DNA of 64,000 nucleotides from an uncultured Taibaiella sp. (GTDB taxonomy: Bacteria > Bacteroidota > Bacteroidia > Chitinophagales > Chitinophagaceae): assembly GCA_964448955.1 (NCBI GenBank), contig CAYUXT010000004.1, positions 36,346-100,345 on the forward strand, written 5' to 3'. Shown piece after piece: positions 36,053-38,307 of this stretch. The stretch's first letter is position 1, and the number at the start of each line of letters is the position of its first letter. Position numbers and translations under genes: made by a program. A model generated the notes under the pieces. It did not search any database. It worked only from the letters and a program-made list of their open reading frames with translations, and was not told where the DNA came from.

Positions 36053-36060
36053 TTGTCCAA

Positions 36061-36103
36061 CATCCAACATTGCCAATCTTTAAAAGATTGGCAATGTTGG
36101 ATG
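36061..36103. repeat. perfect 19-bp palindrome (REP-like hairpin) between icmF and the RAYT gene
   Basis: CATCCAACATTGCCAATCT-TTAAA-AGATTGGCAATGTTGGATG. There is no T-run on either side. Confidence 0.65.
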
Positions 36104-36118
36104 TCAAAAAACATCATC

Positions 36119-36742
36119 ATGGCAAAAGAAGAACATTATTTCACCAAATTTGACTATGATTGTTTCTATCATGTGTACAATCGTGCTATTGATTTGAAGC
36201 CCATGTTCAAAAGCCGTGATAATTATTTGTTCTTTTTAAAACGATACAATGATTTCCTATCTGAAGTTGTAGACACTTATGCTTACAACCTGTTAGGGAA
36301 TCATTTTCATTTATGTATAAAAGTCAAATCAAAAAGTGACATTGATTTATTTGTTTCAGAAAATCCAGTTTATAAAGACAAGCCCATTCATTTAATCATA
36401 AGTGCACAATTCAAAAGACTTTTTCAATCTTACACTTTAGCTTTCAATAAACAACATAAACGTGTTGGAAGTTTATTTCAAAAACCTTTCAAAAGAGCAT
36501 TTATTGACAATCAAAAATATCTTCAAAATACCATAACCTATATTCATCAAAATGCACAACACCACAACATGGTGGAGGATTTTCGAGATTGGGAATGGAG
36601 TTCATATAATAGTATAATTTCCGACAAAGAAACCAAATTGAAAAGAGAAGAAACAAATCAATATTTTGGCAACAACAATCAATTTGAAAATTCGCATCGT
36701 AGCGTAGTTCAAGATATTGTATTTGTGGAAATTGAAGAGTAA
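36119..36742 (+). CDS. IS200-like Y1 (HUH) transposase domain protein, REP-associated tyrosine transposase (RAYT) type
   Basis: Track ORF from 36053 reads through the palindrome; the ATG at 36119 gives MAKEEHYF. HUH motif GNHFHLCIKV, catalytic Tyr context TITYIHQNAQHHNMV, then WEWSSY. Confidence 0.75.
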   Translation: MAKEEHYFTKFDYDCFYHVYNRAIDLKPMFKSRDNYLFFLKRYNDFLSEVVDTYAYNLLGNHFHLCIKVKSKSDIDLFVSENPVYKDKPIHLIISAQFKRLFQSYTLAFNKQHKRVGSLFQKPFKRAFIDNQKYLQNTITYIHQNAQHHNMVEDFRDWEWSSYNSIISDKETKLKREETNQYFGNNNQFENSHRSVVQDIVFVEIEE

Positions 36743-36820
36743 AATAATCAATAGTTTTAAAATGATATTTTACTTGCAATATGTTGAATACCTTTATGAT
36801 TTGAATATCAAATAAAAAAA

Positions 36821-37680
36821 ATGAAAACCTATATAGTTTGCTTATTGACAAGTCTAAATTGTGTTTGCTGCAATGCAAATCAACATCATGAGAAATACAA
36901 TCAGTTAAAAGAAGCGCACTCAATGGTAAAATCAAAACGGTGTCAAGGTATTATCTCAACACTAACACGGAAATATTAGATATCAATTCTTTTGTTTTGA
37001 GGTATAATTATGAAAACAGTATTGATGGGTCTTTAATACAAATTAACGTTAGGAATAAAAATCTGCCATATTTTAATATTGAAAGGAATATGGTATTCTC
37101 TGTAAAATCATATGATATTTCTTACGAAGAAATTAACCCACATTGCGCATAAAAACGCTCAAATTAGCTATGGCATTGGGTTTTATTTTTAGAAATTGTG
37201 CTTTGTGTACTACAAATTTTTATGTTTTGCTAAATTGGAAATACATATCGGCTACAAAGGTATAGCCTAGACACCCTAAGTGTCACACCCCCCTGTGTAC
37301 TACAAACCACATAAACTGCCTGAGAACGGAATATTTAAAAATTACCCGTACCCTCCTACAATATTTTGAGCCAAAGTTTTTTTAAATTTTTTTAAAAATG
37401 CCACTTTTGCGCAATGTGGGTTAAAAGTAATTATTTGGATACGCCTACATCTTCATCTAATAAAAAATATAAATATCAATGGTTTAATGATTATTCTTAC
37501 ATTTTTAAAAATGATGAGAAGAAATACACAGAAATTCTATTTGAAATGGTTGAGCAATCTGAAATCATTTCAATTGAAAACAATAAAATTGTGAATGTTA
37601 CAAAATCAACAAATCAATTTGTTGAATTCGACGCAAACAATAACCCTGTAAATTCGATACTTACTGAAAGCATCAACTAA
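36821..37680 (+). pseudogene. disrupted lipoprotein-like gene (miniature-element insertion, possibly also a frameshift)
   Basis: The 52-aa ORF 36821-36979 (MKTYIVCLLTSLNCVCC...) is out of frame with track ORF 36940-37152. That ORF and track ORF 37414-37680 become one continuous frame when 37137-37424 is removed (197 + 256 nt = 151 codons). Confidence 0.45.
37133..37424. mobile_element. miniature TIR element (~284 bp) with flanking TTAA duplication
   Basis: The 13-bp perfect TIR CCCACATTGCGCA (37137-37149) pairs with TGCGCAATGTGGG (37408-37420). Each is flanked by TTAA (37133-37136 and 37421-37424). No ORF inside. Internal direct repeat TGTGTACTACAAA at 37204 and 37294. Confidence 0.6.
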
Positions 37681-37740
37681 ATTACAACTAATTGAAAATC
37701 AATAACTAAATTTGTTGTTAGTCAGAATAAATTTTACACT

Positions 37741-38307
37741 ATGCTAAAACTAATAATACCAAGTTCTATTATCATTCTTTTAGCCTGCAACTTTGACAAA
37801 AAGAATGAGCAGACAATCCATTTGCAAAACTCAAATAATGTAATTTCTGACACAACAAATCTAGAAATAAGACTTACAGCAAAATTTAATTCATTTGATA
37901 CAACTATTGAAGTATTATTTACAGACACTAAAAAAACTATTGGTGATAAACAAAAGGAAAATTTTGAAAATTTCGTTTTAAAGCAAGACTTGTTGACTAC
38001 TGAAATTCTTCAAATAATATTTGACTTTTACAAAAGGTCTTATGCTGACTATAAAACCGGTTGGACATTGATTGGACAAATAAGCGATGAAGAACTTGAA
38101 AAACACTTACCAACGCCAACGACACCTGAAAATCTAAAACCTTATATAACCCCAGTAATTATTCATATTCAAAATGAAAAAGAATGCAAGGATGGTACCT
38201 TGGGAATTGAATTTGACTGCACTTGGGATATAGAAAATGGACTAGGAGTTTTAATTAAAGACTGGAAAGTGGTTGAGGCAAGTGTCGCAGAAATTTCATA
38301 CTTCTAA
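37741..38307 (+). CDS. hypothetical lipoprotein
   Basis: 188 aa. MLKLIIPSSIIILLAC has a lipobox-like LLAC. No other motif recognised. Confidence 0.5.
   Translation: MLKLIIPSSIIILLACNFDKKNEQTIHLQNSNNVISDTTNLEIRLTAKFNSFDTTIEVLFTDTKKTIGDKQKENFENFVLKQDLLTTEILQIIFDFYKRSYADYKTGWTLIGQISDEELEKHLPTPTTPENLKPYITPVIIHIQNEKECKDGTLGIEFDCTWDIENGLGVLIKDWKVVEASVAEISYF

Follow-up and report, generated by a model that had tools for sequence, protein, structure and literature searches.

Positions 37137-37420 of the window, by which we mean the whole 64-kb stretch of DNA analysed here, are best explained as a MITE of 284 bp, a non-autonomous element derived by deletion from an insertion sequence (IS) of the IS1634 family; we propose that it was mobilised in trans and inserted at a TTAA site, splitting an orphan ORF. 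We assign this reading a probability of roughly 0.92. The preliminary description, made from the letters of the window, had already seen here a transposed non-autonomous element with terminal inverted repeats (TIRs) that splits one ORF, and this view is now supported by further copies, a partner IS, a target duplication and a restored reading frame. The window is part of contig C4 of a metagenome-derived assembly of 117 contigs and 3.3 Mb, with 34.6% G+C overall.

The element and its copies

The element is bounded by perfect 13-bp TIRs, CCCACATTGCGCA at 37137-37149 and its exact reverse complement at 37408-37420, and each TIR is abutted by TTAA (37133-37136 and 37421-37424), as initially reported. 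TTAA followed by the 13-bp end, with at most two mismatches, occurs at exactly two sites in the 64-kb window against 0.02 expected, and two such matches were reached in none of 100 shuffles. The internal features that had been listed were also recovered: a 13-bp direct repeat TGTGTACTACAAA at 37204-37216 and 37294-37306, and a leftward TACCTTTG box at 37262-37255 on the minus strand, the sole TAnnTTTG within the element. The earlier statement that the element lacks an ORF holds for ORFs of at least 60 aa; its coding content is an eight-codon relic of a transposase start. A search of 36700-37800 against Rfam at E values up to 1 gave no RNA family match. The features of the locus are as follows.

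36821-36979, plus strand: upstream ORF of 52 aa with a signal-peptide-like N-terminus, in a frame that differs from that of the target ORF (ORF list; Logan contigs of four runs)
36892-37136, plus strand: 5' part of the interrupted orphan ORF; frame open from 36892, first start codon GTG at 36940
37133-37136, no strand: left TTAA of the target-site duplication (sequence scan; duplication shown on other copies)
37137-37420, minus strand (sense of the parental transposase): 284-bp MITE (copy comparison, depth)
37137-37149, plus strand: TIR matching the 3' end of the parental IS, CCCACATTGCGCA
37150-37235, minus strand: homologue of the final ~95 nt of the IS, where the transposase gene ends (71% identity to the contig C50 IS copy); includes the motif copy at 37204-37216
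37220-37246, minus strand: transposase-start relic, ATG at 37246, MYFQFSKT, stop (alignment with related ISs)
37247-37407, minus strand: non-coding 5' end of the parental IS (alignment with full-length related ISs, at their 5' ends); includes the motif copy at 37294-37306
37255-37262, minus strand: TACCTTTG box of the TAnnTTTG type, 8 nt upstream of the relic ATG; putative promoter
37408-37420, minus strand: TIR matching the 5' end of the parental IS, with an outward-reading ATG at 37414 (sequence scan)
37421-37424, no strand: right TTAA of the target-site duplication (sequence scan)
37425-37680, plus strand: 3' part of the interrupted orphan ORF, annotatable at present as an 88-aa ORF from the ATG in the inverted end

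Other copies of the TIR, for which the preliminary description had proposed a search, do exist: the genome holds two further copies of the MITE, three in total. The second copy (contig C1:105771-106054) is 100% identical to that of the window over all 284 bp. Similarity between the two sites ends exactly at the TTAA flanks and the loci are unrelated, the contig C1 copy being intergenic, between an OmpA-like gene and another gene. The third copy is split between two contig ends, with its left 50 nt at the end of contig C54 and its right 50 nt at the end of contig C6. Both complete copies are flanked by TTAA on either side, and each assembled end of the third adjoins a TTAA. In Logan contigs from four runs of one study, the element together with both TTAAs forms a contig of its own of 292-293 bp, the depth of which is 2.8-3.3 times that of the flanking contigs in the four runs; this roughly threefold depth agrees with three MITE copies per genome. 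Outside this genome, the MITE was absent from 40 relatives, three congeners and the JGI metagenomes (left 32 nt as query).

TTAA is a 4-bp target-site duplication

An uninterrupted site had been named as the means to confirm the duplication. Such sites were found as paralogous sequences for the contig C1 copy of the MITE and for a copy of the IS, while the part of the proposal that concerned an empty allele of the window's own target gene yielded none. The refutation foreseen in the preliminary description, by a lack of any other copy and of any empty site, does not apply. The contig C1 MITE sits in a member of another repeat family, of ~120 bp. Once the MITE and one TTAA are removed, contig C1 can be aligned over the site, without gaps, to eight or more paralogous copies of this repeat. 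The closest of them, on contigs C9 and C41, read ...GGACTAA(A/T)TTTAATTTGTAA... with a single TTAA, and the more divergent ones carry a variant at the site, such as TATAA or TTTTA. These paralogous repeats are DNA-level empty sites for the MITE itself.

A comparable result was obtained for the IS. One IS copy splits a gene for a protein of about 1200 aa, whose two interrupted parts lie next to the IS ends found where contig C91 starts and contig C3 ends. When these two flanks are joined with one TTAA kept, an ORF of at least 1125 aa results; with two TTAAs or none, the frame is broken within 19 codons of the junction. The joined protein has a C-terminal T9SS type B sorting domain (TIGR04131, E 3e-15) and aligns straight over the junction (residue 794) with four homologues of ~1200 aa, namely an intact paralogue on contig C28 and intact homologues in all three congeners. 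Finally, ten related IS copies in two other genomes have matched 4-bp flanks: six are TTAA/TTAA, and TGAA/TGAA, TTAG/TTAG, CTAA/CTAA and TTGA/TTGA occur once each. Since flanks other than TTAA are also matched, the four bases stem from the target and not from the element. By these three independent lines, TTAA is the 4-bp target-site duplication. Among 21 flanks, no target preference was visible beyond the four bases.

The partner IS

A transposase with matching ends is absent from the window, as had been stated, and the partner IS lies in other parts of the genome. In total the assembly contains 21 exact matches to the 13-bp end, of which 20 are preceded by TTAA and one by TTAG. These ends fall into the classes MITE-left, MITE-right, IS-3' and IS-5'; six are MITE ends and 15 are IS ends, the latter in two interior-sequence classes of eight and seven; the copy number of the IS is 7-8. 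Nearly all the IS ends lie within ~50 nt of a contig end, the expected look of a collapsed multi-copy repeat, and some fifteen contig breaks of the assembly are accounted for by this one IS family.

The best-assembled IS copy is contig C50:15475-17205 (1731 bp). Its transposase frame begins 23 nt inside the end and is open for 569 codons to the end of the contig. The protein matches NF033559, the NCBIfam model of the IS1634 family, with an E value of 2.2e-73 and 248 bits (cutoff 100), and DDE_Tnp_1 is its only Pfam match. D170, D250 and E438 do not vary when the protein is aligned with six relatives, and the DDE triad is intact in the contig C50 copy. The YREK-type motif has a non-canonical spacing, Y431-(3)-R435-(2)-E438-(6)-K445 versus the canonical Y-(2)-R-(3)-E-(6)-K. 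The IS end CCCACATT fits the IS1634 consensus C-----YT, with C at position 1 and TT at positions 7-8. An AlphaFold model of the transposase, built from a shallow alignment (pLDDT 72, pTM 0.68), was used for a fold search, in which the Tn5 transposase ranked best (1MUH, E 9e-8) and piggyBac second (6X67, E 8e-4), with modest TM-scores of 0.33-0.46 and a sequence identity to Tn5 of only ~10%. The fold search alone gave such matches; a sequence search of the PDB with the transposase gave no match.

In this genome, the 5' ~350 nt of the IS are known as 50-nt contig ends and, indirectly, through the depth of Logan contigs. By comparison with its relatives, the genome's IS would be about 2.1 kb long. 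Walking over contig-end overlaps toward the full IS produced no overlaps, and pairing of the remaining IS ends by frame continuity was ambiguous, as homologues were not found. Full-length relatives of the IS are present in 12 of 200 other sampled genomes of the family, with 40-59% protein identity and lengths of 2.07-2.24 kb; their ends read CCCACATTGCAG... or CCCAACTTG... An exact scan for TTAA plus the end in 185,579 species genomes returned the same end in one Marinilabiliaceae MAG and one Saprospiraceae MAG, along with three further matches (Cyanobacteria, Amylibacter) that are probably due to chance.

Several observations were made on the side. Contig C109 (1232 bp) holds a second interior variant of the IS, 92.6% identical to the contig C50 copy, with two insertions, one of 1 nt that causes a frameshift in the transposase near residue 300 and one of 6 nt that leaves the frame unchanged; the frameshift may reflect a real pseudogene or an artefact of assembly or repeat collapse. 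Contig C47 (19526 bp) begins with an IS 5' end and finishes with an IS 3' end, so that two IS copies enclose a segment of 19.5 kb, possibly in the manner of a composite transposon. In the Saprospiraceae MAG, CBDFMR010000003.1 carries a 2756-bp element whose 13-bp ends match these without a difference and which has TTAA on either side; its transposase similarity is weak and fragmentary, and it is ~670 bp longer than the related ISs.

Derivation of the MITE from the IS

Read in the transposase sense, the MITE begins with ~174 nt that can be aligned to the non-coding 5' end of full-length related ISs, with GGTACGG and GGTTTGTAGTACACAGGGG as conserved blocks. At nt 175 (window 37246, minus strand) the MITE has ATG TAT TTC, to be compared with the MYFK, MFLK or MYLK starts of the relatives at nt 183-204. 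After MYFQFSKT and a stop codon, what follows corresponds to the final ~95 nt of the IS. The junction left by the deletion is at ~37234-37240, and CCA(A)TTTA is common to both sides. Both arms are thus IS ends with the interior missing, which makes the element an internal-deletion derivative. Logan contigs of 144 and 112 nt, with ~6.5-8.5 times the flank depth, match 37238-37424 with few differences (~92%) and then diverge, and between the right arm of the MITE and the resident IS, at its 5' end, identity is probably ~90%. The left arm is 71% identical to the assembled IS, which suggests that the direct parent may be a lost or unassembled IS variant.

The 13-bp direct repeat of the MITE corresponds to a subterminal motif, (T/C)TGTAGTACAC, that is common to the MITE and three related ISs. 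In all of them its two copies share one orientation, the first at a distance of 116-140 nt from the 5' end and the second 68-70 nt from the 3' end; the genome's own IS reads CCGTAGTACAC at the 3' motif position. From its placement we would guess that the motif is a subterminal binding site of the transposase. In related ISs, TTTG occurs at the place of the MITE's TACCTTTG box. The -7 element of Bacteroidota promoters is TAnnTTTG, and because the box is of this type and lies 8 nt upstream of the relic ATG, it can be read as a promoter. We infer from sequence that it is a relic of the promoter region of the transposase itself; it points leftward, antisense to the 5' half of the target ORF.

In the mechanism that we propose, the IS transposase, with its Tn5-like predicted fold and, in the contig C50 copy, an intact triad, would act in trans by binding the shared ends, and it may bind the subterminal (T/C)TGTAGTACAC motif too. 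It would then move the element, presumably by cut-and-paste chemistry, and a 4-bp staggered cut at TTAA on insertion would leave TTAA duplicated. The landing of the MITE would have split the orphan ORF, with the upstream half stopping just inside the element and the downstream half being able to start at the ATG within the inverted end. We infer mobilisation in trans because the ends are identical to those of the IS and the MITE copies are identical to each other; the system may well be active at present.

The interrupted ORF and alternative explanations

Removal of 37137-37424 joins 36940-37136 to 37425-37680 in frame, exactly as first calculated, giving 453 nt or 151 codons including the stop, and the sequence across the junction reads ...SYEEIKSNYLDTP... 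The restored frame is in fact longer than had been noted, as it is open back to 36892 and comprises 166 codons. On the same strand, 81 and 85 stop-free codons abut the element on its two sides. The related claim that the insertion created the stop of the first half and the ATG of the second, both within the inverted repeats, stands for ATG 37414, which is inside the right TIR; TAA 37150-37152 is inside the element but follows directly after the 13-bp end and is not part of the TIR. For annotation, this means that the 70-aa ORF 36940-37152 and the 88-aa ORF 37414-37680 are halves of one interrupted orphan gene. The upstream ORF 36821-36979 is out of frame with the target ORF, in line with the preliminary description. 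The letters are identical in Logan contigs of four runs, and this frame offset is consequently not an error private to the assembly. If the upstream ORF and the target ORF were once a single gene, the shift would sit in 36892-36979.

The target ORF appears to be confined to this genome in all collections that were searched. A phmmer search against 1.84 billion protein representatives returned the ORF itself as the sole match, and an exact cluster look-up has it recorded from this assembly only. Its C-terminal half, as a protein query, had no match in 200 genomes of the family. In Pfam, the two halves and the upstream ORF gave nothing above the curated cutoff, the upstream ORF having one match below it. 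DNA searches for the target gene in 40 relatives returned no empty allele, the predicted joined pattern of the empty site was absent from JGI metagenome contigs, and none of the Logan contigs of the four runs, which drop rare variants, joins the flanks across the element.

On another reading, the flanking ORFs are two separate small genes, or no genes at all, with the element lying in a spacer. Frame restoration would then be a coincidence with odds of one in three. In favour of this, neither half has a homologue or a Pfam family, and the upstream ORF is already out of frame. Against it, the 81 and 85 stop-free codons join to 166 in DNA of 26% G+C, an open frame of at least 160 codons was reached in none of 20000 shuffles of the joined 501 nt, and the stop of one ORF and the ATG of the other are both contained in the element. 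We therefore regard two separate ORFs as quite improbable. A different history, in which a full-length IS inserted at this site and lost its interior later in place, so that the short element never moved as a MITE, fits the evident origin of the element by internal deletion from an IS, and the CCA(A)TTTA shared across the deletion junction. It has to account, however, for the identical junction and the identical 284 bp (100%) at another locus, unrelated to the first and flanked by TTAA in its own right, for the ends of a third copy on two further contigs, and for a depth of about three copies. Identical deletions arising independently are very unlikely, and we consider loss in place still less probable than a fortuitous joining of two ORFs.

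The neighbourhood of the element raises one more candidate, since a RAYT-like gene, encoding a Y1/HUH transposase, lies with a nearby palindrome ~400 bp upstream (36053-36742), and the element could in principle be a REP/REPIN-type repeat of this RAYT. Y1 enzymes of the IS200/IS605 type act on hairpins and produce no target duplication, whereas the element shares its ends exactly with a DDE-type IS and is flanked by a 4-bp target duplication. It also shows no sequence relationship to the palindrome near the RAYT gene, and the probability that we would grant to a RAYT origin is close to negligible. The insertion of an IS-derived MITE into one ORF thus remains our preferred reading.

Relation to known elements

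MITEs derived from ISs are known in bacteria, such as the ISCca4-derived MITE of Cardinium (PMC9769881) and the ISL3-related MITE of Microcystis (PMC11448079). Like IS-derived MITEs in general, the element described here is small and non-coding, has the ends of a resident IS and a target duplication, is present in several identical copies, and has arms homologous to the IS ends. It differs from the MITEs of Cardinium and Microcystis in that its parent belongs to the IS1634 family and that the start codon of the transposase and a promoter-like box are retained. A literature search found no description of an IS1634-derived MITE and no paper linking IS1634 with TTAA; the clade may already be catalogued. 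With every structural hallmark of a MITE present, and with the movement in trans proposed above, this is a textbook pair of a MITE and its parent IS. The event is an ordinary mobile-element insertion of a well-known kind, and opens no new question.

The IS1634 family is described as having AT-rich duplications of 5-6 bp, or long and variable ones in the case of IS1634 and IS1549, a variant YREK motif and the terminal consensus C-----YT (De Palmenaer et al. 2008, PMC2266710). The parent IS resembles the family in its above-cutoff match to NF033559, its long DDE transposase, its non-canonical YREK-type motif and its C-----YT end, and differs from the description in its 4-bp duplication and strong preference for TTAA. 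On transposase homology and terminal consensus we place it in the IS1634 family, with a duplication trait that departs from the family description. The locus thus documents a Bacteroidota clade of the IS1634 family that targets TTAA with a 4-bp duplication, and the natural miniature derivative would mark the end portions that are sufficient for mobility. These data are of use in annotating ISs and might serve as the basis of a bacterial transposon tool with TTAA specificity.

Two other groups of transposases invite comparison. The best match to the predicted fold is Tn5/IS50 of the IS4 family, with which the IS shares a catalytic core built on a DDE triad. Tn5 makes a 9-bp duplication without sequence specificity, whereas the element here has a 4-bp TTAA. 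The other group is that of the eukaryotic piggyBac transposons and IS1380, to which the element is similar in its TTAA target duplication and in having piggyBac (6X67) as the second-best fold match. The termini of piggyBac have the form CCC...GGG, as do those of the MITE and IS here. IS1380 is the prokaryotic outgroup of piggyBac (PMC10813416). Membership in piggyBac/IS1380 was considered and rejected, as the score with the IS1380 model was 21.8 bits (cutoff 180) and a piggyBac Pfam domain (DDE_Tnp_1_7) was not detected at E values up to 0.01. Nor is piggyBac the nearest fold, since Tn5 ranks higher. The likeness to piggyBac is one of behaviour and not of membership.

One may go further and speculate that this Bacteroidota IS1634 clade is a prokaryotic functional counterpart of piggyBac, on account of its CCC...GGG termini, strict 4-bp TTAA and Tn5-like fold, but we find this unlikely. 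If it were so, the clade would be TTAA-specific and would excise precisely, so that gene disruptions like the present one would be reversible. The MITE would then define the minimal requirements in cis: ~95 nt from one end and ~175 nt from the other, with the direct repeat of (T/C)TGTAGTACAC included.

Other repeats and neighbouring genes

Besides the MITE and the IS, the genome contains other repeats that adjoin the sequences discussed here. The ~120-bp repeat family that hosts the contig C1 MITE (contig C1:105611-105790) has an internal hairpin, TGTTGTTGGTCAAAAGACACAACAACGG, and at least ten copies, on contigs C9, C26, C41, C22, C21, C35, C20, C3, C37 and C1. It has no sequence relation to the palindrome beside the RAYT gene. 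That palindrome, CCAACATCCAACATTGCCAATCTTTAAAAGATTGGCAATGTTGGATG, is near-perfect and is located at 36060-36104, at the start of the RAYT-like gene 36053-36742.

Directly after the stop codon of the target ORF, 37682-37728 is one end of another multi-copy repeat. Copies of 90-95% identity are found at eight contig ends (C74, C43, C10, C99, C82, C37, C97 and C78), two same-strand pairs lie ~0.9-1.0 kb apart (contigs C20 and C14), and the depth in Logan contigs is ~14 times that of the flanks. The next gene, 37741-38307, encodes a 188-aa protein with a lipoprotein signal and a DUF6985 domain (E 6e-21). The repeat carries a TAAATTTG box (37707-37714) 27 nt upstream of the ATG of this gene (37741), which suggests that the promoter of the gene may derive from a mobile-element relic.
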